Of a DNA stretch of 64,000 nucleotides, positions 33,732-45,301 are shown in pieces (position 1 is the stretch's first letter; each line of letters begins with the position of its first letter). A program made the position numbers and the translations under genes. Source of the DNA: Dehalococcoidia bacterium (lineage in GTDB: Bacteria > Chloroflexota > Dehalococcoidia > UBA2979); contig JAWLHV010000005.1 in the NCBI GenBank assembly GCA_041690175.1, positions 14,496 through 78,495 of the forward strand, written 5' to 3'. The notes beneath the pieces are model-generated. The model saw only the letters and a program-made list of their open reading frames with translations. It searched no databases and was not told the DNA's origin.

Positions 33732-34586
33732 TCACGGGACGGCGTTCCGCACGATGGCGTCCGTCACCCGCGCGACCTGCGCCATCTCCTCCACGTCATG
33801 CACGCGCACGATGTCCGCGCCGCGCTCTATGGCAATCGCGATGGTCGCGGCCGTGCCGTAGGTGCGCTCCTGCGCCGGCCGGTCGATGACGTAGCCGATG
33901 GACGACTTCCGAGACGTCCCCACCAGCAGCGGCCGCCCCAGCCCCTTGAGTTCGTCCAGCCGCCGCAGCATCTCAAAGTCCCGCACGGGCCCCCAGCCGA
34001 AGCCGTACCCGGGGTCCACGATCACCTGGGACTCGGGCAGGCCCGCCGCGACAGCGGCCGCGATCCCCGCGTCCAGCCCGGCGCGGATGTCGCCAATCAC
34101 GTCGCCACCGAAGGTGCGCCCGCGCTGGTTGTGCATCACCACCACCGGCACGCCCGCCTCCGCGACCACCCGCGCCATGGCGGGATCGCCTCGAAGCCCC
34201 GTGACGTCGTTCACGGCGTCCGCGCCATACTCCAGCGCGCGGCGGGCGACCTCTGCCTTCGACGTGTCCACGGAGATCGGCACGCTCACGGCGCGGCGGA
34301 CGGCGCCCAGCACCAGGTGCAGGCGCTTCCACTCGTCCTCCGCGTCCACGGGGGCGAACTCCGGCCGAGTGGACTCGGCGCCCACGTCCAGCAAGTGCGC
34401 GCCCGCGGCCACCATCGCCTCCGCCTGTCGGGCTGCCTCGGCCGGGTCGGGGACACCGTCTCCGGAGAAGGAGTCCGCAGAGGCGTTGATGATCCCCATG
34501 ACGTGGGTCTGACGCCCCCATTCGAAAACCTGACCGCCGATGGTGATCGGAGGCGGGACGGGCCAGTCGCGCGGCGGCGTCATCAC
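33732..34586 (-). CDS. folP: dihydropteroate synthase
   Basis: GIINASADSFSGDG...DVGAESTRP...VSVDT...DPGYGFG. Confidence 0.9.
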   Translation of the reverse strand: MMTPPRDWPVPPPITIGGQVFEWGRQTHVMGIINASADSFSGDGVPDPAEAARQAEAMVAAGAHLLDVGAESTRPEFAPVDAEDEWKRLHLVLGAVRRAVSVPISVDTSKAEVARRALEYGADAVNDVTGLRGDPAMARVVAEAGVPVVVMHNQRGRTFGGDVIGDIRAGLDAGIAAAVAAGLPESQVIVDPGYGFGWGPVRDFEMLRRLDELKGLGRPLLVGTSRKSSIGYVIDRPAQERTYGTAATIAIAIERGADIVRVHDVEEMAQVARVTDAIVRNAVP

Positions 34587-35014
34587 ACGACCTCGATGGG
34601 TTCTTCCGTGATGTCGCCGCCGCGGGTGATCAGGTAGGCACGTACGTCCGGCTCTTCATGCTCCAGCGAGACCAGGATGTAGTAGGTGCCGGGGAACATC
34701 GGTTCCTGGTCCATCTCTCCGGGCGGGAAGAACGCCATGCGCACGTCCGTGCGCGAGGGATACGCCCTCGAGGCGACATGCGAGTGGTAGATGGCGAACA
34801 GCGAGTCCCCACCGTCCTCGCGAGCGCGCTCCAGCCGCATCATCTGCAGCGGGTCCATCTCGTAGCGGTAGGGGCTGGCGGCGGCGTTCTTGACGCGATG
34901 CACCTCCACGGGCACGCCGTCCCGCCCGTGCACCATGCCGCACGCCTCGTTCGGCAGGTCCTCGCGCGCGTGCGCAACCATCTCGTCGACGACCGCCCGT
35001 GGGATCCGTGGCAT
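34583..35014 (-). CDS. mec: JAMM/MPN+ metalloprotease (Mec+-like)
   Basis: JAMM motif EACG...YHSHVASRAYPSRTD; 143 aa; its stop overlaps the folP start by 4 nt. Confidence 0.85.
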   Translation of the reverse strand: MPRIPRAVVDEMVAHAREDLPNEACGMVHGRDGVPVEVHRVKNAAASPYRYEMDPLQMMRLERAREDGGDSLFAIYHSHVASRAYPSRTDVRMAFFPPGEMDQEPMFPGTYYILVSLEHEEPDVRAYLITRGGDITEEPIEVV

Positions 35015-35934: not shown

Positions 35935-36756
35935 CTACTTCTCGATCGGCACGCCCACCATGGAGCCGTACTCGGTCCATGAGCCGTCGTAGTTCTTCAC
36001 GTTGGGGTAGCCCAGAATGTGCTTCAGCACGAACCACGTGTGGCTGGAGCGCTCGCCGATGCGGCAGTAGGCGATGGTGTCTCCACCGGACTGCACGCCC
36101 GCGCCCTCGTACAGCGCCTTCAGTTCGTCAGGCGACTTGAAGGTGCCGTCCTCGTTCACTGCGCGTGCCCACGGGATGTTGCGTGCGCCGGGGATGTGCC
36201 CCCCGCGCTGCGCGGTCTCGCTCATGCCGGGAGGGGCAATGACCTCGCCGGTGAACTCCGCGGGGCTGCGCACGTCCACCAGGTTGATGCCGGAGCCCAG
36301 GGCCGCCAGCACGTCGTCCCGGCGGGCGCGGAGGCTCATGTCCGGCTCCTTCGCCTGGTAGGAGGCGGGCTGGATCTCCGGGTCCGCGGTAGTGCTGGGG
36401 CGGTTGTCCGCCAGCCACTTCACGCGGCCGCCGTCCATGAGCGAGACGTTCTGGTGGCCGTACAACTCCATGAGCCACAGCGCGTAGGCGGCGAACCAGT
36501 TGTTGTTGTCGCCGTAGAGCACCACGTGCGTGTCCGGGGTGATCCCAGAACGCTCCATGAGCGCCTCGAAGTCCTGCTTGGACAGGATGTCGCGGGTGGT
36601 CGCGTCCTGGAGTTGCGTGGTCCAGTTCCAGCCCACCGCGCCATCGATGTGGCCCTCGCGGTAGGCCTCGGTGTCTACGTCCACCTCGACCAGGCGGATG
36701 TTGGGGTCGTCCTTGTGCTCCTGCACCCAGTCGCAGGTCACGAGTCGCTCGGCCAT
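35935..36756 (-). CDS. sseA: thiosulfate / 3-mercaptopyruvate sulfurtransferase (tandem rhodanese)
   Basis: ORF trimmed to MAERLVTCDWV with GGAGG RBS; active-site loop CRIGERSS; two rhodanese domains. Confidence 0.85.
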   Translation of the reverse strand: MAERLVTCDWVQEHKDDPNIRLVEVDVDTEAYREGHIDGAVGWNWTTQLQDATTRDILSKQDFEALMERSGITPDTHVVLYGDNNNWFAAYALWLMELYGHQNVSLMDGGRVKWLADNRPSTTADPEIQPASYQAKEPDMSLRARRDDVLAALGSGINLVDVRSPAEFTGEVIAPPGMSETAQRGGHIPGARNIPWARAVNEDGTFKSPDELKALYEGAGVQSGGDTIAYCRIGERSSHTWFVLKHILGYPNVKNYDGSWTEYGSMVGVPIEK

Positions 36757-36860
36757 GTCAGTCCTCCGTGCTTGTCCGTCCATCGATGCGCGTGCCGCCC
36801 CCTGCGGAGGCGGTGTGTCTGCCCCTCGGTGCGGCGGTCAGCGCCCTCACGCGCGCGGCG

Positions 36861-37796
36861 CTACCACCACAACTTCTCCGCGACCGCCTCGCGGATGTCC
36901 TCGTACTCCTGGCTCCACAGGCCCGTGGACAGGTACTTCCAGCCGCCGTCCGCCAGCAGGCAGACGATCTTGCCGGACTCCATCCGTTCCGCCGTCCGCT
37001 GCGCGGTGCGCACCACGGACCCCGCGGAGATGCCCGCGAAGACGCCGGTCTTCTGCGTGAGTTCCTTGGTCAGGGCGAACGACGTGGCGGAGTCCACCAC
37101 GATGCGGCCGTCCAGGACCTGGTCGTCGAAGACCGGCGGGATGTAGCCGTCCTCCAGGGCGCGCAGGCCCTGCACCAGGTCGCCGGGGTGCGGCGCCGCG
37201 GCCACCACGCGTATGGCCGGGTTGTGCTCCTTCAGCCGCCGGCCGGTGCCGGTCAGCGTCCCACCGGTGCCCAGGCCCGCCACGAAGACGTCCAGGTCCG
37301 GCAAGTCCGCAATGATCTCCGGCGCGGTGGTCTCGTAGTGGGCGCGGGGGTTCATCTCGTTCTCGTACTGGAACAGCATCACCCACTTCGGGTTCTGATC
37401 CCGGATCTCCGTGGCCCGCCGCACGGCGCCGTTGGAGCCCAGGTCGCCCGGCGAGAAGATGATCTCCGCCCCGTACGCGCGCAGCAGGCCGGTGCGCTCC
37501 TCCGAGACCGCGTCCGGCATGACGATCTTCACACGGTACCCGCGCAGGCTGCCGATCATCGCCAGGGCGATGCCCGTGTTGCCGCTGCTGGGCTCCAGGA
37601 TGGTGTCGCCCGGCTTCAGCAGGCCAGTACGCTCCGCTTCCTGCACCATGAACCACGCGATCCGGTCCTTCACGGAGCCGGTGGGATTCTGGCCCTCCAA
37701 CTTCGCCCAGATCTCCACGCGCGGGTTCGGGGACATCGCGGAGATGTCCACCAGCGGCGTGTTGCCGATGAGGTCCAGCAGGCTCTTCACCTTCAC
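36861..37796 (-). CDS. cysM: cysteine synthase, CysM-like (PLP-dependent, predicted to use a CysO thiocarboxylate)
   Basis: LIGNTPLV...NPTGSVKDR...SSGNTGIALA; lies immediately downstream of a CysO-like gene. Confidence 0.85.
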   Translation of the reverse strand: MKVKSLLDLIGNTPLVDISAMSPNPRVEIWAKLEGQNPTGSVKDRIAWFMVQEAERTGLLKPGDTILEPSSGNTGIALAMIGSLRGYRVKIVMPDAVSEERTGLLRAYGAEIIFSPGDLGSNGAVRRATEIRDQNPKWVMLFQYENEMNPRAHYETTAPEIIADLPDLDVFVAGLGTGGTLTGTGRRLKEHNPAIRVVAAAPHPGDLVQGLRALEDGYIPPVFDDQVLDGRIVVDSATSFALTKELTQKTGVFAGISAGSVVRTAQRTAERMESGKIVCLLADGGWKYLSTGLWSQEYEDIREAVAEKLWW

Positions 37797-37819: not shown

Positions 37820-38098
37820 CTACAGCCCGCCGGCCAGCGCCGGCAGGAAGGAGACGGTGTCGCCGTCCTTCAGGGCCGTGTCCTTGCCCCCCAGGTACCG
37901 CACGTCCTCGTCGTTCAGGTAGATGTTCACGAAGCGACGGAGGTCGCCGTTCTCGTCCACCACGCGCGAGGCGAACCCCGGGTAGTTGTCCTCGATGCGG
38001 TCGATCAACTCGCCGACGGTGGAGCCGTCAGCCGTGAACTCACGCTGCCCGTTCACGACCTGCTGGATCACAGAGGTCACGTGTACGGTCACGGCCAT
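37820..38098 (-). CDS. cysO: CysO/ThiS/MoaD-like sulfur carrier protein (copy 1)
   Basis: 92 aa; beta-grasp signature RRFVNIYLNDEDVRYLGGKDTALKDGDTVSFLPALAGG followed by a single extra Leu before the stop. Confidence 0.8.
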   Translation of the reverse strand: MAVTVHVTSVIQQVVNGQREFTADGSTVGELIDRIEDNYPGFASRVVDENGDLRRFVNIYLNDEDVRYLGGKDTALKDGDTVSFLPALAGGL

Positions 38099-38198: not shown

Positions 38199-39053
38199 CT
38201 ACGCGGTGGCGGCCGGCATCTCCAGCGGCGGCGAGCCGCAGAAGGCGTCGTAGTCGATCAGTTCGGTCACCGTCGGGTTGTCACCGCAGAGCGGGCAGGA
38301 CGGGTCGCGCCGCAACTTCATGGTGCGGAACTCCATGGTCAGCGCGTCCACCAGCAGCAGGCGGTTCACCAGCGGGTTACCGATGTCCAGGATCTGCTTG
38401 AAGACCTCGGTGGCCTGGATGGAGCCCACGATGCCCGTGATCGCGCCCAGCACGCCGGCCTCCGCGCAGGAGGGCACCAGTCCCGGGGGCGGGGGGTCCG
38501 GGTAGAGGCAGCGGTAGCAGCCGCTGCCCGGCTTGTAGACCGTGGCCTGCCCGTCGAAGAGCAGGATCGCGCCGTCCACCAGCGTCTTCCCGGCCAGGTA
38601 GCAGGCGTCGTTCACCAGGTAGCGGGTGGCGAAGTTGTCCGCCCCGTTCACCACGATGTCGTAGTCCCCGATGATCTCCATCGCGTTGTCGCTGGTGATC
38701 GGCGTGTGGTGCTTCACCACCTGCACGTGCGGGTTGTAGGCGTTGAGTTTCTCCTCAGCGGAGACGATCTTCGGCTTGCCCACGTCCGCCGTCTGGTGCA
38801 GCACCTGCCGCTGCAGGTTGGAGAGGTCCACCACGTCGAACTCGACGAGGCCGATCTTCCCCACGCCGGCCAGCGCCAGGTAGAGCGCCACCGGCCCGCC
38901 GAGGCCGCCCGCACCGATCACCAGCACCTTAGCGTTGCGCAGTTTGCGCTGACCCTGCGGGCCCACCTGCGGCATGATGATGTGCCGCGAGTAGCGCATC
39001 ACCTCGTCCGGCGTGAGCGCCTCGGAACGTGGTGTCGTGGCTGCATCAGACAT
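38199..39053 (-). CDS. moeB: MoeB/ThiF-family E1-like adenylyltransferase (MoeZ-like, no rhodanese domain)
   Basis: ORF trimmed to MSDAATTP; YSRHI...VLVIGAGGLGGPVALYLALAGVG; zinc ligands CYRC and CPLC. Confidence 0.9.
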   Translation of the reverse strand: MSDAATTPRSEALTPDEVMRYSRHIIMPQVGPQGQRKLRNAKVLVIGAGGLGGPVALYLALAGVGKIGLVEFDVVDLSNLQRQVLHQTADVGKPKIVSAEEKLNAYNPHVQVVKHHTPITSDNAMEIIGDYDIVVNGADNFATRYLVNDACYLAGKTLVDGAILLFDGQATVYKPGSGCYRCLYPDPPPPGLVPSCAEAGVLGAITGIVGSIQATEVFKQILDIGNPLVNRLLLVDALTMEFRTMKLRRDPSCPLCGDNPTVTELIDYDAFCGSPPLEMPAATA

Positions 39054-39339
39054 CGGATTCCCCCGATCCACCCGCCAGCGCGGGGATGACGGCAACCTGG
39101 TCGCCGTCCGAAACCTTGGTGTCGATCCCATCGAGATCATGGATCTCGGTGTTGTTCAGGTAGACGTTGATGTGCGTGGGGACGCGGTGGTCGGCGTCGT
39201 AGACCAGGTTCGCGAACCCGGGAAAGACCCGCTCCACGGCGTCCAGCACCTCCCCCACCGTATCGCCCTCCACCGTGACGTTCTCGCGGTTCGCCGTGAT
39301 CCGCCGGAACGGGGAGGGGATGTACACGCTGACCGGCAT
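39046..39339 (-). CDS. cysO: CysO/ThiS/MoaD-like sulfur carrier protein (copy 2) with C-terminal extension beyond GG
   Basis: MPVSVYIPSP...GFANLVYDADHRVPTHINVYLNNTEI...DGDQVAVIPALAGG-SGESDV; aligns along its whole length with copy 1. Confidence 0.8.
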   Translation of the reverse strand: MPVSVYIPSPFRRITANRENVTVEGDTVGEVLDAVERVFPGFANLVYDADHRVPTHINVYLNNTEIHDLDGIDTKVSDGDQVAVIPALAGGSGESDV

Positions 39340-39402
39340 GCCGATCCTGATCACTGTGCCCGCGGGCCCGCCGGGGAGCCGCGAGGCGTCCGTGTTGACT
39401 GC

Positions 39403-40376: not shown

Positions 40377-40817
40377 CTAGATGCTGTAGTTGATCACGGC
40401 CTGCTGCTCGTGTTCCCGCTCGTGTTCCACGAGCTGGGCAACCGAGACGGCGGCCAGCGTCTTGCGCATGTTGTCGTAGATCTCCTGCCAGACCCACTCC
40501 TGGCCGCAGATCGCCTCCTGGCCCGGGACGGTGTTGTCCAGGCAGGCGAGCGGGGCCAGCGAGCCCTCCAGCGCCTCCAGCACGTGCAGCAGGCAGATCT
40601 CCTCCGCCGGCTTCGCCAGCAGGTGCCCGCCGCCCGGACCGCGCACGCTCCGCACGAAGCCCGCGCGACGCAGTTGCGCCAGCAGGTGGTCCAGGTAGGA
40701 CTCCGGGATCTGCCGGCGACGCGCGATCTCCGCCCGCTGCACGGGGCCGGAGCCCTCGTGCTTCGCGAGGTCGATCATGGCGCGGACGCCGTAGTCACCC
40801 TTGGTGCTCAGGAGCAT
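40377..40817 (-). CDS. Rrf2 family transcriptional regulator (CymR/IscR-like)
   Basis: ORF trimmed to MLLSTKGDYGVRAMIDLA...; wHTH; first gene of the cysteine cluster. Confidence 0.85.
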   Translation of the reverse strand: MLLSTKGDYGVRAMIDLAKHEGSGPVQRAEIARRRQIPESYLDHLLAQLRRAGFVRSVRGPGGGHLLAKPAEEICLLHVLEALEGSLAPLACLDNTVPGQEAICGQEWVWQEIYDNMRKTLAAVSVAQLVEHEREHEQQAVINYSI

Positions 40818-40965
40818 GATGCGAGCCGGATACCCCCGCCGGAGGCACCGCTGGCGGGCTTCCGACAATTCACGACTAAATCAGTCGACATTGTACCAGA
40901 TACCTCCCCTCCGTATAGTTCGCGCCTCACCAGCCCAGCACCGCCTGCCCCCAGGAGTACCGCCC

Positions 40966-41460
40966 ATGCCGCCCGCCGACCCGCCCGTCCACGAGCGCGA
41001 CGTCTTTGCCACGCGCCTGCGCGCCGTCTTCGAGCGGCTGGCGGAGAACGTGGAGGCCATCCCCACCGCCGAGTTGGACACGAGGGTCCTGGCGGACGGG
41101 AACACCCCGGCAGTGCTGGTGGCGCATGTGCTGGGCTCCGCCCGCGCGTCCGTCCTGGGCATCGGCTGCGGCATCGAGGTCGAGCGGAACCGCGCAGACG
41201 AGTTCGCGGCAGAGGGCGGCACGCCGGCAGGCCTGGGGGCGGCACTGCGGGCGTTCCTGCAGGAGGCGGAACGCGCGCTGGCCGGCACGCCGGACGGCTA
41301 CCTGGACCAGGTGGTGACGCCGCCGCAGGCCTGGCTCGGACTGGTCCCGCAGCAACCGATGGCTCGCCGCGCGGCGATCCTCTCCTCCATCGCCCACGCC
41401 TCGGAGCACCTGGGCGAGTTGATGTTCATCAAGGACACCCTGGCGGCGCGTGACCGATAG
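40966..41460 (+). CDS. DinB-family (DinB_2 / mycothiol maleylpyruvate isomerase N-terminal-like) protein
   Basis: MPPADPPVHERDVFATRLRAVFERLAENVEAIP...; AGGAG RBS; conserved His in HASEHLGEL. Confidence 0.6.
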   Translation: MPPADPPVHERDVFATRLRAVFERLAENVEAIPTAELDTRVLADGNTPAVLVAHVLGSARASVLGIGCGIEVERNRADEFAAEGGTPAGLGAALRAFLQEAERALAGTPDGYLDQVVTPPQAWLGLVPQQPMARRAAILSSIAHASEHLGELMFIKDTLAARDR

Positions 41461-41514
41461 GCCGGTGCACCGGGTCGGTTGACGGACCCGCTCGCTCTCT
41501 ATAACCTCTCGGTT

Positions 41515-41892
41515 ATGGAACAAGCCGCCGCCGTGCACGGACCGGAACCGCTGGACGCGGTCTTCGCCGCGCTGGCGGATCCCACGCGGCGGGCGATCCT
41601 CGCGCGGCTCGCGCAGGGCGAGGCGTCGGTGGCCGAACTCGGCGAACCTTTCGAGATGAGCCAGCCTGCGATCTCCAAGCACCTGAAGGTACTGGAGCGG
41701 GCAGGGCTGATCTCGCGCCACCGCGACCGCCAGCGCCGTCCCTGCCGCCTGGAGGCCCAGCCCATGGCGGACGCCACCGCCTGGCTGGAGCGCTACCGCC
41801 AGCACTGGGAAGGCCAGTTCCAGCAACTCGATGCCCTTCTCGTGGAGATGAAGGGGCTCGCAGAGATGAAGTCGGGCACGGCCCGCCCGTAG
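41515..41892 (+). CDS. ArsR/SmtB family transcriptional regulator
   Basis: ALADPTRRAILARLAQGEASVAELGEPFEMSQPAISKHLKVLERAGLI. Confidence 0.8.
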   Translation: MEQAAAVHGPEPLDAVFAALADPTRRAILARLAQGEASVAELGEPFEMSQPAISKHLKVLERAGLISRHRDRQRRPCRLEAQPMADATAWLERYRQHWEGQFQQLDALLVEMKGLAEMKSGTARP

Positions 41893-41924
41893 CCCACTAC
41901 GAACCGGTACGAAGGAGTCTCCCC

Positions 41925-42410
41925 ATGCCCGCAGCCACCGAGGTCGTCGCGCAGGGCGACCGCGCCATCCGCGTCACACGCGACTTCGATGCCCCCGTCG
42001 CCCTGGTCTGGGACGCGTTCACCAGGCCGGAGTTGCTCCAGCGCTGGATGGGCGTCTTCGGCGACTGGGAGTGGGAGTCCTGCGAGAGCGACCTCCGCGA
42101 GGGCGGCTCGTGGCGCTACGCCTGGAAGCAGCGGGAGGGCACGGGCCGCCTCGTGCTGGCGGGCACCTACCGCGAGGTGGTGCGCCACCAGCGCATCGTG
42201 ATGACGCAGCGCTACGAGATGGAGGGCCTCCCGGATTTCGGGGAGATGCTGGTCACCACCACCTTTACCGAGTCGGACGGCCGCACCCTCCTGGACGAGG
42301 TGGTGGAGTACCAGACCGCCGAGGCCCGTGACATGGACCTCCAGAACATGCCGCAGGGCCTGGAGCCGGGCTTCGCCATGCTGGACGGCGTGCTGGCGTC
42401 GTTGCGCTGA
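41925..42410 (+). CDS. SRPBCC / AHSA1-like (activator of Hsp90 ATPase homologue) domain protein
   Basis: IRVTRDFDAPVALVWDAFTRPELLQRWMG...; a typical partner of ArsR regulators. Confidence 0.7.
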   Translation: MPAATEVVAQGDRAIRVTRDFDAPVALVWDAFTRPELLQRWMGVFGDWEWESCESDLREGGSWRYAWKQREGTGRLVLAGTYREVVRHQRIVMTQRYEMEGLPDFGEMLVTTTFTESDGRTLLDEVVEYQTAEARDMDLQNMPQGLEPGFAMLDGVLASLR

Positions 42411-42419
42411 TCGAGGGGT

Positions 42420-42640
42420 GCTCCCTCCGGCCCCCTCCCAGTGGGGTGCGGGAAGTCCCCTCGAGGTTCACCCGCAGCATCGAAGAGGGCGCAGCACGCT
42501 GCGCCCCTACGACGGACAGCCGGTCTGGCCACACCTCGAAGGGCGCCGGCCACCTCCGGCCCCCCTCTCCTTCCCACAGAGGGAAGGAGAGGGTTGGGAG
42601 GGGGGTCTCCGCCTCTGCCCGCTCGGCCTAGCCCGGGAGT
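42420..42640. repeat. partial copy of the GC-rich palindromic repeat element
   Basis: shares gggcgcagcacgctgcgcccctacgacgg and cccctctccttcccacagagggaaggagagggttgggaggggggtctccgcctc with 8605-9130 and 57960-58080. Confidence 0.75.
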
Positions 42641-42641
42641 C

Positions 42642-42920
42642 CTACGCGCCGCCCGCCACGGCCGGAACAATGGAGACCTCGTCGCCATCCTTCAGACCCG
42701 TGGTCAGGCCCTGCAGGAAGCGGACGTCCTCGCCGTTCACGTAGATGTTCACGAAGCGGCGGATCTCCCCGCCCTCGTCCAGCAGGCGCTCGCGCATGCC
42801 GGGGAACTGGCCCTCCAGCGTCGCCACCACGGACTGCAGGTCGCCGGGCTCCGTGTTCACGGTGTCCTGGTTCTGCGTCAGGTTGCGCAGGGGGGTGGGG
42901 ATCTTCACCTTCACGGCCAT
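42642..42920 (-). CDS. ThiS/MoaD/CysO-like sulfur carrier protein (copy 3; GG followed by a single Ala)
   Basis: ORF 42642..43127 trimmed to MAVKVKIPTPLRNL...RRFVNIYVNGEDVRFLQGLTTGLKDGDEVSIVPAVAGGA; last gene of the riboswitch-controlled operon. Confidence 0.75.
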   Translation of the reverse strand: MAVKVKIPTPLRNLTQNQDTVNTEPGDLQSVVATLEGQFPGMRERLLDEGGEIRRFVNIYVNGEDVRFLQGLTTGLKDGDEVSIVPAVAGGA

Positions 42921-43009
42921 CGTTCGGACTCCTCGTCCCGGTCGGTCCCGGGTCAGTGTTGTGTTGTGCTCGTTCTTCGATTCGGCCCGCGGTTCGGTCT
43001 GGGGGCTCG

Positions 43010-43252
43010 CTAACCCTCGACGACGTCGCCCAGGGTGGCCTCGTCCACGCGGACGCCCTTGCTGCGCACCCAGTCCAGGGCGCGGCCCACCTCGTCGTCG
43101 TCGCCTTCCAGGCCCAGGACCACCCACCCCACCTTGGCGTCCACGTCCGCCATGCGGATGTTGGTGATCACCCGGAACTCCTGCCCCAACTGGTAGATCA
43201 GCGGTTCCTTGATGAGTTCCGGGCTGAAGGTCAGTCGCACGTGCTTTTCCAT
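43010..43252 (-). CDS. NIL-domain protein (80 aa)
   Basis: EPLIYQLGQEFRVITNIRMADVD...GWVVLGLEGDDDEVGRALDWVRSKGVRVD resembles the MetN C-terminal NIL domain; lies between the ThrC-like and ThiS-like genes. Confidence 0.65.
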   Translation of the reverse strand: MEKHVRLTFSPELIKEPLIYQLGQEFRVITNIRMADVDAKVGWVVLGLEGDDDEVGRALDWVRSKGVRVDEATLGDVVEG

Positions 43253-43264
43253 GGTGAGGGCCTC

Positions 43265-44518
43265 CTAGGCCGTGACCGGCTCGCCGGAGCGCGCGCGCCG
43301 CGCTTCCACGAAGGACTCTACCGTTGGCTGGACGTGCAGGGGCGCCTCCACCTCGTCCATCACCGCCTCGATGGTCTTCAGGCCGCCGCCGGAGATGATC
43401 GCCACCGTCTCCTCGTCCCGGGGGATGAAGCCGGACTGCACCATCTTCCGCAGACAGGCGATGGTCACGCCGCCCGCAGTCTCCGCGAAGACGCCCTCCG
43501 TCTCCGCCAGCAACTTGATGCCCTCCACCACCTCGGCGTCGGTCACCATCTCCGCGCCGCCGCCGGTCTCCTGCATCTGCTTCAGCGCGTAGTAGCCGTC
43601 CGCCGGATTGCCGATGGCCAGCGACTTCGCGATGGTGTTCGGCTTCTGCGGGACAAAGTTCAGCGTGTCGTTCGCGTAGGCCGTGGCAATGGGCGAGCAG
43701 CCCTCCGCCTGGGCGCCGGACATACGCGTCTTCGGCTCATCGATGAGCCCCACCTTGTGGAACTCCTGCAGGCCCTTCCAGATCTTCGTGTACATGGAGC
43801 CGGACGCCATGGGCGCCACGATGTGCTGCGGCGCGCGCCAGCCCAGTTGCTCCGCGATCTCATAGCCCAGCGTGCGCGAGCCCTCCGCGTAGAAGGGACG
43901 CACGTTGATGTTCACGAAGGCCCAGTTGAACTGCATGGACAGTTCCGTGCACAGGCGGTTCACGTCGTCATAGGAGCCGCGCACGGTGACCAGCGTGGGG
44001 TCATAGATGGCGGAGCCCACCACCTTGCCCTTCTCCAGGTCGTCCGGGATGAAGACCAGGCACTCCATGCCCGCGCCGGCGGCGTGCGCCGCCACGGAGT
44101 TGGCCAGGTTGCCCGTGGACGCGCAGGCGATGGCGTCGAAGCCGAACTCCCTGGCCTTGGCGATCGCCACGGAGACCACGCGGTCCTTGAAGGACCAGGT
44201 GGGGTTCACGGTGTCGTTCTTGATCCAGAGCGTGTCCAAGCCAATGGCCTTCGCCAGGCGGTCGGCGCGGATCAGCGGCGTGTAGCCGTCGCCCAGGTCC
44301 ACCTTGTAGGCGGGGTCGCAGGGCAGCAGGTTGGCGTAGCGCCAGAGCGTGGTGGGGCCGGCGGCAATGGTGTCGCGCGTGGTGGCCTCGCGGATCGCGT
44401 CATAGTCGTACGCGACCTCCAGCGGGCCGAAGCAGAACTCGCACGAGAAGATCGGCGCAATCTCGTACTCGCGGCTGCACTCGCGACACTTCAGAGCGCG
44501 ATGGAACGATGCGGACAT
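43265..44518 (-). CDS. threonine synthase-like PLP enzyme with N-terminal zinc ribbon (predicted homocysteine synthase, MetM-like)
   Basis: LKCRECSREYEIAPIFSCEFCFGPLE then the PLP fold (SFKDR...) over 417 aa; AGGAAGG RBS; preceded by a SAM-I riboswitch. Confidence 0.85.
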   Translation of the reverse strand: MSASFHRALKCRECSREYEIAPIFSCEFCFGPLEVAYDYDAIREATTRDTIAAGPTTLWRYANLLPCDPAYKVDLGDGYTPLIRADRLAKAIGLDTLWIKNDTVNPTWSFKDRVVSVAIAKAREFGFDAIACASTGNLANSVAAHAAGAGMECLVFIPDDLEKGKVVGSAIYDPTLVTVRGSYDDVNRLCTELSMQFNWAFVNINVRPFYAEGSRTLGYEIAEQLGWRAPQHIVAPMASGSMYTKIWKGLQEFHKVGLIDEPKTRMSGAQAEGCSPIATAYANDTLNFVPQKPNTIAKSLAIGNPADGYYALKQMQETGGGAEMVTDAEVVEGIKLLAETEGVFAETAGGVTIACLRKMVQSGFIPRDEETVAIISGGGLKTIEAVMDEVEAPLHVQPTVESFVEARRARSGEPVTA

Positions 44519-44750
44519 ACGGAGGACCTTCCTCGATGGGTTGACCGACGGAGCCAGCGCTCCGGCTGTGTCGTGGATGAGGTGGGTGCGGGAGGCCCGG
44601 TCTGCGCGCCGCGGTCTCGTGGAGGGCGGACGCGCGCCGGGCTAGCGCATCGACATGCGCGACATGCGCACGAGCATCTCACCCACGAGGAGGGTGAAGG
44701 GACGATGCGAGCCGGATGAGGAGTCGGACGAGATCATCGTGTAGCGCCTT

Positions 44751-44880
44751 CCGTTCATCTTCCCCGGCGCCCGTCCGTGTATGGCGCTCGGGCCGGAATT
44801 AGCACCGTGTCCGCCCAGGCATAGGCGACCGGTTGCCGCGGCTTCACAGGGCCGGAACCCTCCACCGCTCTGGATGAACC
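44751..44880 (-). promoter_or_regulatory. SAM-I (S-box) riboswitch aptamer
   Basis: Minus-strand transcript GGUUCAUCCAGAGCGGUGGAGGGUUCCGGCCCUGUGAAGCCGCGGCAACC...GGUGCUAAUUCCGGCCC...GGGGAAGAUGAACGG matches the S-box consensus block by block (P1 GUUCAUC/GAUGAAC, AGAGnGGUGGAGGGA, GGCCC, GAAgCC, GGCAACC, GUGCyAAUUCC). Confidence 0.85.
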
Positions 44881-44977
44881 GCCGGAGCCCCGTCGAAGGG
44901 CCAGCCCGGCAAGTCACTGACAAGGCTAGGAATCGCGCGCTTCTTCTGTCAATCCGCGCGTGTCCGAGGGGAGCCCG

Positions 44978-45301
44978 CTACCCCTCGCCGGTGGCGGTGC
45001 GGCGGGCGGCGGCGATGCGGGCGTGGTTCACGGCCGTGCGTACGGCCTCCAGGTCCACCTGCCCGCCGCTGCTCACCACCTGGCCGTCCACCTCCACCAC
45101 CGGGATCTCCAGCAGGAAGCGGCGCTCCAGGCCCTCGTCGCCCTCGATGTCCCGAGGGGCCAGGTGGAAGGGGATGGTGCGCTGGAGCGAGAGCAGCAGG
45201 GCGCGGGCCACCTCGCAGAGGTGGCAGTCACGGCGGGTGTAGAGCACCACGCTGGGGGCCTCGCCGGGGACGCGCGGCACGCCGCGCAGGTTGGCCGTCA
45301 T
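44978..45301 (-). CDS. glutaredoxin-like protein (DUF836 / glutaredoxin 2 family)
   Basis: ORF trimmed to MTANLRGVP...VVLYTRRDCHLCEVARALL...IPVVEVDG; 4-nt overlap with the lgt stop. Confidence 0.7.
   Translation of the reverse strand: MTANLRGVPRVPGEAPSVVLYTRRDCHLCEVARALLLSLQRTIPFHLAPRDIEGDEGLERRFLLEIPVVEVDGQVVSSGGQVDLEAVRTAVNHARIAAARRTATGEG

Follow-up and report, generated by a model that had tools for sequence, protein, structure and literature searches.

A locus in a 64,000-nucleotide stretch of the genome of a Dehalococcoidia bacterium (contig JAWLHV010000005.1, positions 14,496 to 78,495; the whole stretch is called the window below) raises the question of what an enzyme resembling threonine synthase makes when its gene lies behind an S-adenosylmethionine (SAM) riboswitch and ahead of genes for a NIL-domain protein and a ThiS-like sulfur carrier. 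The explanation favoured here, with a probability of roughly 0.7, is that the three genes form a SAM-controlled metM-NIL-metO operon whose products would make homocysteine from O-phosphohomoserine, by analogy with a route described in Streptomyces albulus.

The riboswitch, the enzyme and the carrier

Genes in the window were called from the GC content of third codon positions and assigned with Pfam, and the whole 64 kb was scanned with Rfam. The sole match at the gathering threshold was a SAM-I (S-box) aptamer on the minus strand (RF00162; 70.4 bits, gathering score 44.4, E = 2e-14), matched over the full length of the model (positions 1-108). An earlier note on this DNA had claimed such an aptamer about 230 nt upstream of a three-gene operon, and the aptamer was confirmed by the covariance model, as were the three genes by matches to PALP and thrC, PF09383 and PF02597. 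The E1 activating enzyme, rhodanese and JAMM peptidase that it had placed in the same window were likewise recovered (PF00899, PF00581 and PF14464). The aptamer ends 233 nt before the ATG of the enzyme gene, close to the distance first given, and the gap also holds a conserved Met-rich upstream open reading frame (uORF) and a hairpin that had gone unremarked.

The S. albulus system is known here through papers that cite it, and its likeness to the window is one of description. In the account given by the GapMind 2026 preprint, citing Hasebe et al. 2024 (Appl Environ Microbiol 90:e01247-24), MetO thiocarboxylate arises through maturation by Mec and charging by MoeZ, and MetM turns O-phosphohomoserine into homocysteine; the same account describes MetM as homologous to threonine synthases and often misannotated as one. 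PMC12172450 places a SAM riboswitch upstream of S. albulus metM and a metO-like gene beside its cyanobacterial homologs. Riboswitch, MetM and MetO make up a core that was known before, and the window adds a member from another phylum. The earlier note had thought the whole combination undescribed: this is apparently so for the NIL partner, and does not hold for a ThrC-like enzyme and a ThiS-like carrier under a SAM riboswitch, which had already been characterised.

By its matches the 417-residue enzyme (PALP, 231 bits) is a fold-type II pyridoxal phosphate protein of the threonine synthase family. Its relatives were collected with HMMER from 1.84 billion representatives, and the resulting alignment was used to scan one genome per species, which gave 80 loci from Chloroflexota, Cyanobacteria, Actinomycetota, Nitrospirota, Aquificota, Desulfobacterota, Methylomirabilota and Planctomycetota. 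Their open reading frames (ORFs) were all searched with hidden Markov models (HMMs) of the NIL and ThiS domains and with the remaining proteins of the window. In 69 of the 80 loci the enzyme gene is followed directly by a ThiS gene, and in 23 a NIL gene adjoins it, so that both small ORFs, which the earlier note had taken for partners of the enzyme, are conserved beside ThrC-like genes. The N-terminus of the enzyme carries a CxxC-11-CxxC pattern whose four cysteines are invariant in diverse full-length relatives. In a neighbour-joining tree of the 80 loci, enzymes with this zinc ribbon form a single clade, set apart from ordinary ThrC paralogs by a long branch, and the window enzyme is nested among its Chloroflexota members. 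Two such paralogs are encoded a few kb from metM-metO (L077:1959-3101 and L079:2150-3280) and score about 200 bits against the window enzyme; MetM-like and canonical ThrC-like proteins therefore coexist in one genome.

A regular-expression search placed the SAM-I core motif 5′ of metM in 8 of 9 Actinomycetota and 7 of 23 Chloroflexota loci. When 13 of these 15 motif-positive loci were submitted to Rfam, every one exceeded the gathering score; the other two, L062 and L086, are known by the expression alone. Of the motif-negative loci, 13 were likewise submitted, and none of the 13 returned a riboswitch of any class. Orthologous aptamers upstream of metM were found in 16 relatives checked with Rfam. 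In the tree of the 80 loci, the window enzyme clusters with the actinomycete homologs linked to SAM-I, apart from the co-resident ThrC paralogs. The actinomycete Nonomuraea gerenzanensis, for example, has a SAM-I aptamer, a MetM homolog that shares 50.7% identity with the window enzyme, and a ThiS protein ending in GG, without a NIL gene.

The carrier matched PF02597 (ThiS, 62 bits) and NF041918 (SAMP1, 63 bits) and has the C-terminus AVAGG-A. The GG is invariant in the MetO alignment; most relatives end there, and the window protein ends at GG-Ala. Over all fetched loci, 104 ThiS-like carrier ORFs stop exactly at GG and a minority run 1-7 residues beyond. Genes for ThiF, rhodanese and Prok-JAB lie less than 8 kb from metO, and a JAB gene also accompanies the metM-metO-NIL operons of Nitrospirota and the loci with ThiS::NIL fusions described below. 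The clade, the adjacent ThiS gene, the recurrent SAM-I aptamer and the co-located E1 and JAB genes together support the earlier proposal of a SAM-repressed, thiocarboxylate-dependent homocysteine synthase, and on these sequence comparisons the two genes are probably metM-like and metO-like.

That the 417-residue enzyme is no more than a threonine synthase, with two unrelated small ORFs beside it, is very improbable. The enzyme does score above the cut-off of TIGR00260 (thrC, NCBIfam; 277 bits), its relatives are publicly annotated as threonine synthase, MetM and ThrC share their substrate, and a cyanobacterial homolog is reported to have threonine synthase and threonine deaminase activity in vitro (PMC12172450). 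It falls below the cut-off of PRK08197, however, the best full-length ThrC model (297 against 303), and, as the GapMind preprint has it, MetM is routinely misannotated as ThrC. The SAM riboswitch found 5′ of the gene here and in 15 of the 80 loci (by regular expression, 13 confirmed by Rfam), the frequency of the carrier gene and the separation from the ThrC paralogs of L077 and L079 also speak against a threonine synthase. Nor is another sulfur compound, such as cysteate or a precursor of coenzyme M, a thio-cofactor or a thio-natural product, anything but a very unlikely product of the enzyme-carrier pair. Cysteate synthase did evolve from ThrC homologs, many pathways use carriers of the ThiS type, and a CysO-CysM pair is present in the window; cysteate synthase models nevertheless give 63 bits against a cut-off of 325, SAM-I riboswitches control methionine and SAM genes, the Met-codon leader peptide points to methionine, and the nearest characterised system makes homocysteine.

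In distant members of the ThrC family (34-39% identity), a regulatory module is attached to the enzyme in other ways. When the ten longest of the long enzyme representatives were searched with Pfam, none had a fused NIL or ThiS domain. Six of about 490 residues carried a C-terminal PadR-type winged helix (P0306, P0339, P0350, P0355, P0356 and P0370), two of about 615 residues a LeuA allosteric or dimerisation domain (LeuA_dimer; P0322 and P0327), and two an unmatched N-terminal extension (P0308 and P0383).

The NIL protein and its fusion to the carrier

The 80-residue NIL protein matched PF09383 with 57 bits against a cut-off of 24 and contains no cysteine. Homologs numbered 904, and the best 120 of these are 80-82 residues long and 68-95% identical; the C-terminal TLGDVVEG is invariant in an alignment of 12 sequences. 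The 23 loci with an adjacent NIL gene show two gene orders and belong to at least three phyla: metM-NIL-metO in 14 Chloroflexota loci (2 of them without an adjacent metO), metM-metO-NIL in seven Nitrospirota loci and one Methylomirabilota locus, and a NIL domain fused to the carrier in one Desulfobacterota locus, a Syntrophaceae metagenome-assembled genome (L042). HMM profiling found no adjacent NIL gene in the 35 Cyanobacteria and nine Actinomycetota loci. On the MetM tree, loci with NIL make up the Chloroflexota and Nitrospirota-type clades, apart from a few apparent losses.

In L042 one ORF encodes a ThiS domain ending in ...AIAGG, six further residues and then the NIL domain. A search with this ORF gave at least 120 protein clusters of 171-179 residues in which PF02597 and PF09383 are both present, so the ThiS::NIL fusion is no assembly artefact. 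The internal GG is invariant among 20 aligned fusions and is separated from NIL by about six residues, and the fused genes lie in operons of the order Rrf2-MetM-ThiS::NIL-rhodanese-ThiF-JAB-PALP. The GG of the fused carrier would have to be freed before an E1 could act, presumably by JAB; the arrangement implies proteolytic release in the fashion of ubiquitin precursors. That NIL works together with carrier and enzyme is strongly supported by the two gene orders and the repeated fusion.

An AlphaFold2 (AF2) model of the NIL protein (predicted local distance difference test score, pLDDT, 86), with a ferredoxin-like fold, was compared with known structures using Foldseek and matched the C2 domain of MetN (TM-score 0.81, root-mean-square deviation 1.3 Å) in the selenomethionine-soaked structure 3TUZ and in 3TUI. 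Residues N31-I32 align to N295-I296 of MetN, N295 of the E. coli protein being the asparagine of the Asn-Ile motif on the ligand side. The segment T-N-I-R is the best conserved in all three NIL clades. In L-aspartate semialdehyde sulfurtransferase (L-ASST), a homocysteine-forming enzyme of methanogens, the NIL domain is described as binding methionine and regulating activity. Lacking cysteine, and with a model that fits the methionine-binding MetN C2 domain, the window protein is likeliest to be a methionine-sensing partner; this assignment is tentative, at somewhat below even odds. It would be physiologically sensible because MetM competes with threonine synthase for O-phosphohomoserine, a competition that resembles the branch point at this metabolite in plants.

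Homologs of the NIL protein carry labels such as 'FeS-binding protein' and 'sulfurtransferase ferredoxin', which are unfounded here because the window protein has no cysteine. A part as a second carrier, through a C-terminal glycine, was considered and rejected: in the Nitrospirota and fusion clades the C-terminus is ...VVE or ...IIE and has no glycine, and cysteine is lacking. Nothing relevant was found in the literature on a NIL domain with a sulfur carrier, MoaD or ThiS, and the NIL partner and the ThiS::NIL family appear to be undescribed in the searchable literature.

The leader between aptamer and metM

For comparison of the leader, a metagenome scan contributed 80 closer loci. A module of uORF and hairpin corresponding to positions 44596-44752 of the window lies 5′ of metM in L001, L004-7 and L091-L138. 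The uORF is preceded in relatives, as in the window, by a Shine-Dalgarno (SD) sequence GGAAGG with a spacer of 5-11 nt, and it ends in AUG-NNN-AUG-C(G/U/C)C-UAG-CCC in 31 distinct long leaders, which gives a peptide with the terminus M-x-M-R/L/P. The stop codon is UAG in 30 of the 31, and the triplet separating the two AUGs is free to vary at each position. Of 25 leaders with a recognisable SD-AUG pair, 24 keep this AUG in the frame of the terminal motif, at uORF lengths of 11-40 codons with at least 10 different values, and 59 of the 60 ATG triplets between aptamer and motif share the frame of the uORF (binomial p = 3e-27, relatedness ignored). Internal methionine makes up 12.4% of 28 distinct uORF peptides, against 2.0% in the proteins of the window, a six-fold excess that is concentrated C-terminally. 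The terminal motif occurs once in the window, where 0.03 occurrences are expected, and in 35 of 170 loci it occurs exactly once, 5′ of metM. An AUG in the 3′ strand of helix P1 was considered as the start of the uORF and rejected in favour of the SD-linked AUG, since several leaders have it in another frame (the 'DERKA' reading).

A hairpin begins at the first base after the stop codon in 28 of 28 distinct leaders, with a mean of -24 kcal/mol. The window hairpin has -27.6 kcal/mol, and the 71 nt around it give a z-score of -3.6; minimum free energy folding of the whole leader was uninformative (z = -0.9). The foot CCCG...CGGG is conserved while the interiors diverge, including a change from G-C to A-U at the fifth pair. 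A pyrimidine-rich, G-poor tract lies 3′ of the hairpin in relatives, among them genomes of 44% GC. The module is also present in loci where Rfam finds no aptamer, namely L004-6, L123 and the marine relatives L127, L128 and L133 (44-46% GC), so it is an autonomous element and more than a platform for the riboswitch.

The connection of aptamer and gene differs among relatives. Actinomycetota leaders have an aptamer that ends at most 7 nt from the metM start codon, a distance that indicates direct translational control. Lower-GC Chloroflexota leaders have a classic hairpin and U-run straight after the aptamer, and the window clade has a long spacer instead. A consensus scan of positions 42400-45300 found no intrinsic terminator.

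Two unusual leaders were observed in relatives. In L004 (3827-4449), L005 and L006 a HicA/HicB pair stands just 5′ of the metM leader, from which the aptamer is gone and in which uORF and hairpin are kept; insertion of HicAB may have removed the aptamer there. The leader of L098 (2690-2820 to 3000) contains a hairpin insertion of about 90 nt with short tandem repeats (CCUCGAAGCC-like, and GGCGGCAGGAGGC twice), and its spacer before metM has repeated CAGACCCGGU units; it measures 516 nt against the usual 250-310 or so.

Two pairings that would couple these parts were examined and rejected. Anti-SD pairing between the uORF and the metM SD, assessed with RNAduplex against shuffled uORFs, gave a mean z-score of about 0 over 28 leaders. 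The CCUUC of the aptamer's 5′ flank, considered as an anti-SD, belongs in relatives to a small UUCG-type hairpin, and the pairing is not conserved.

From frame, codon and SD conservation the uORF is probably translated and regulatory, and that it senses methionine is slightly favoured. Leader peptides for Trp, Leu, Ile/Val and Cys are known in high-GC bacteria. To our knowledge attenuators have been found for Trp, His, Leu, Ile/Val, Thr, Phe and Cys, and not for Met; no methionine leader-peptide attenuator was found in the literature searched. An attenuator with a Met-codon uORF in series with a SAM-I riboswitch appears to be undescribed in the searchable literature.

Several observations weigh against the regulatory roles proposed for the uORF and the NIL protein. 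The hairpin is without a U-run even in relatives of 44% GC, and a search for an alternative antiterminator pairing found none; lacking both features, the module is not a classical trp-type attenuator. Comparison of the leaders identified no anti-SD by which SAM could occlude the uORF SD. The sequence C(G/U/C)C-UAG-CCC is conserved at the level of nucleotides, and an RNA-level signal or a special context for termination is possible. In some NIL proteins N31 is replaced by S or D. The characterised actinomycete-type operons and the cyanobacterial ones do without NIL; catalysis therefore does not generally depend on it, and it is an accessory part of the locus. Two other explanations were weighed. 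The uORF could be translated without sensing methionine, relaying the decision of the riboswitch to the hairpin or a Rho site, with AUG-NNN-AUG-CGC-UAG-CCC acting as RNA. The near-constant UAG (30 of 31), the retention of CGC-UAG-CCC even in genomes of 44% GC and the CGCAUG...AUGCGC of the window, which forms a 6-bp hairpin, fit a relay, and this would be a simple evolutionary step from Actinomycetota, where the aptamer directly controls the metM start codon. The module persists, however, in the lineages without an aptamer, Met codons are enriched upstream of the terminal motif too, with 59 of 60 ATGs in frame, the codon between the AUGs is free at three positions, and the CGCAUG/AUGCGC palindrome occurs in a minority of leaders, so that a mere relay is improbable. 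Less likely than a sensor, though a serious rival to it, is that NIL is an adaptor docking MetO on MetM or E1, or a pro-domain capping the Gly-Gly until JAB cleavage and thereby setting the timing or stoichiometry of maturation. The short linker between the invariant GG and NIL in the fusions, the JAB genes within the same operons and the companionship of NIL with MetM and MetO (2 of 14 Chloroflexota loci lack an adjacent metO) agree with an adaptor, and such high conservation over 80 residues suggests several protein contact surfaces. The documented roles of NIL domains, in MetN C2 and L-ASST, are nevertheless methionine binding and allosteric control, the N-I motif lies in the best-conserved segment across the three clades, and Streptomyces operons function without NIL. 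The adaptor and sensor roles are compatible and not mutually exclusive.

Proposed mechanism and comparison with known systems

The chemistry is inferred from homology to S. albulus MetM/MetO. The JAB peptidase would trim the terminal Ala of MetO and so expose Gly-Gly, the ThiF-type E1 would adenylate the carrier, and sulfur from the rhodanese would convert it to the thiocarboxylate. MetM, with its pyridoxal phosphate (PLP) cofactor, would then exchange the phosphate of O-phosphohomoserine for the sulfur of MetO, releasing homocysteine. Expression would be set in the leader, where binding of SAM would close P1 beside the uORF SD and lower translation of the uORF. A ribosome translating the uORF, or stalled at its Met codons when Met-tRNA is scarce, would cover the 5′ arm of the hairpin; in an unoccupied leader the hairpin would fold and metM expression would be aborted or blocked. 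Because a U-run is lacking, this step probably needs Rho or the hairpin is a weak terminator. As a methionine-binding partner of carrier and enzyme, NIL may add feedback at the enzyme level, at the point where threonine synthase also draws on O-phosphohomoserine. The fullest form of this scheme has three stacked sensors: the SAM riboswitch, what would be the first Met-codon attenuator (alone where the aptamer is absent) and a methionine-binding NIL protein that gates the carrier, with the exposure of Gly-Gly by JAB made methionine-dependent in the fusions. As a whole it is speculative, with odds of about one in three.

The features of the locus are collected in Table 1. A candidate promoter lies 5′ of the aptamer, and TTGACA...CTAGCCT is kept at equal distance from the aptamer in many relatives; it is likely, on this conservation, to act as a promoter. 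Its -10 hexamer agrees with the consensus at 3 of 6 positions, retaining only T, A and the final T, for which reason a consensus scanner missed it. A small hairpin is seen between promoter and P1. Beyond metO, 50 nt past its stop codon, stands a perfect 13-bp hairpin (CCCUCUCCUUCCC / GGGAAGGAGAGGG) without a U-run, the probable end of the operon. Since this strong hairpin follows metO and the next gene is convergent, the operon consists of three genes. The hairpin is a further terminator-like structure without a U tract in this genome.

The order LGT, Glrx-like, metM, NIL, metO, Rrf2, CysK, ThiS::ThiF, ThiS, CysM, rhodanese, JAB is kept in close relatives, and because the string recurs in many of them the operon is no chance arrangement. 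CysK and an Rrf2 regulator are present in the window as well (Pfam). Here a plus-strand insert (40801-42410) with genes for a protein resembling DinB or mycothiol transferase, an ArsR-type helix-turn-helix protein and an AHSA1/SRPBCC protein lies between metO and the Rrf2-cysK block, which is contiguous in L001-L006. The third ThiS-like gene and the E1 gene of the window correspond in relatives to one ThiS::ThiF fusion of 378-393 residues (L001:9525-10706, L004:8251-9387). One ThiF E1 without a rhodanese domain and a separate rhodanese probably serve MetO and CysO alike.

Table 1. Coordinates of the features discussed, given as window positions unless a locus of a relative is named.
Feature	Position	Strand	Basis or remark
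Candidate sigma-70-type promoter: TTGACA (44952-44947), 18-nt spacer, TAGCCT (44928-44923)	44923..44952	-	sequence reading
SAM-I (S-box) aptamer	44752..44880	-	RF00162 covariance model
uORF Shine-Dalgarno GGAAGG, flush with the 3′ strand of P1	44747..44752	-	9 nt before the uORF AUG
Met-codon-rich leader uORF, 31 codons, MISSDSSSGSHRPFTLLVGEMLVRMSRMSMR	44642..44737	-	stop TAG at 44644-44642
GC-rich hairpin, candidate attenuator	44596..44641	-	starts at first nt after the uORF stop
C-rich, G-poor spacer, possible Rho loading site	44545..44595	-	sequence reading; function inferred
metM Shine-Dalgarno GAGGAAGG, 8 nt before ATG	44527..44534	-	sequence reading
metM-like gene, 417 aa	43265..44518	-	PALP, TIGR00260, N-terminal 4-Cys ribbon
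Free-standing NIL protein, 80 aa	43010..43252	-	PF09383
metO-like ThiS/MoaD carrier, 92 aa	42642..42920	-	PF02597, SAMP1, MoaD_arch
13-bp hairpin 3′ of metO	42563..42593	-	sequence and fold
Third ThiS-like gene, ends GG-SGESDV	39046-39354	-	TGA overlaps the E1 start (ATGtcTGA)
ThiF-type E1 (adenylyltransferase), candidate activator of MetO and CysO	38199..39053	-	PF00899, 273 bits; syntenic in relatives
CysO-like carrier ending GG-L	37820-38098		Pfam
CysM	36861-37796		Pfam
Two-domain rhodanese, candidate sulfur donor to the E1-carrier adenylate	35935..36783	-	PF00581, 113 bits; syntenic in relatives
Prok-JAB (JAMM, Mec-like) peptidase, candidate trimmer of MetO GG-Ala and releaser of carrier adducts	34583..35014	-	PF14464, 77 bits
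ThiS::NIL fusions in relatives	L042:6273-6797; L088:7001-7540; L089:7001-7516; L090:6125-6640		

MetM and MetO were described only in 2024, and their genes are annotated almost everywhere as threonine synthase and a molybdopterin-type or ubiquitin-like small protein. The locus and its 160-odd relatives indicate that the route occurs widely, in Chloroflexota, Nitrospirota, Cyanobacteria, Actinomycetota and other phyla, and its distribution bears on predictions of auxotrophy for uncultured bacteria. The NIL partner and the Met-codon uORF change how the known MetM/MetO system would be regulated. The former, with the ThiS::NIL fusions, offers a testable handle on the function of free-standing NIL proteins and suggests that methionine-responsive NIL modules were recruited independently to an importer, to L-ASST and to MetM/MetO. 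The uORF, if it does sense Met-tRNA, would fill the long-noted gap for a Met attenuator and would be a natural case of riboswitch and leader peptide in series, separating the SAM and methionine signals.

As far as the S. albulus system is described in the papers citing it, the window shares with it the order of a ThrC-homologous PLP enzyme followed by a ThiS/MoaD carrier gene, the SAM riboswitch upstream, the requirement for a JAMM peptidase and an E1 in trans, and the public annotation as threonine synthase. It differs in the NIL gene between metM and metO, in an aptamer that stands apart from metM and ahead of a Met-rich uORF and hairpin, in an E1 whose rhodanese is not fused and comes from a separate gene, and in its phylum, Chloroflexota.

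Other pathways share the carrier logic. Wolinella succinogenes reportedly has a protein-thiocarboxylate methionine pathway of HcyS, HcyD, HcyF and MetY (Krishnamoorthy and Begley 2011, as cited in PMC5764234). HcyD reportedly removes Ala from HcyS-Ala. Its carrier, like that of the window, has an extra Ala past Gly-Gly for JAMM removal and supplies thiocarboxylate sulfur for homocysteine; unlike in the window, the enzyme there is a MetY-type O-acetylhomoserine sulfhydrylase and not a ThrC homolog, the substrate is another, and there is no NIL protein. In Mycobacterium tuberculosis, CysO, CysM, Mec+ and MoeZ make cysteine from O-phosphoserine with an enzyme of the CysM fold. The same logic applies, and the window has paralogous CysO-CysM, E1, rhodanese and JAB genes a few kb away; product and substrate in M. 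tuberculosis are nevertheless cysteine and O-phosphoserine.

For the NIL protein, the earlier note had drawn a parallel to the pair MA1821/MA1822 of methanogens. MA1822 is indeed the NIL-ferredoxin partner, whereas MA1821, taken by the note for ThrC-like, belongs to DUF39/COG1900 (PMC5764234). L-ASST, found in methanogens and Desulfovibrio, thus resembles the window in being homocysteine-forming and NIL-containing, with an unrelated catalytic protein (DUF39/COG1900), with aspartate semialdehyde and sulfide as substrates, and with its NIL domain fused to a 4Fe-4S ferredoxin, whereas the NIL protein here is free-standing and without cysteine. The C2 domain of MetN has the same fold, and its Asn-Ile is retained; there it is the C-terminal domain of an ATP-binding cassette (ABC) ATPase and serves trans-inhibition of transport, in contrast to an independent 80-residue protein or a carrier fusion.

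For the leader, the nearest likenesses are leader-peptide attenuators and leaders that combine a riboswitch with a uORF. The cys operons of mycobacteria have Cys-codon leader peptides upstream, no obvious U-rich terminator, and a proposed role for Rho. The mgtA leader of Salmonella combines a Mg2+ riboswitch with the Pro-codon mgtL. Such leaders resemble the window in a short, SD-led uORF that has regulatory codons for the amino acid of its own pathway grouped near its 3′ end and is followed by RNA structure; unlike them, the window leader has Met codons, a hairpin that starts at the first base after the stop codon, and a position in series with a SAM-I riboswitch.

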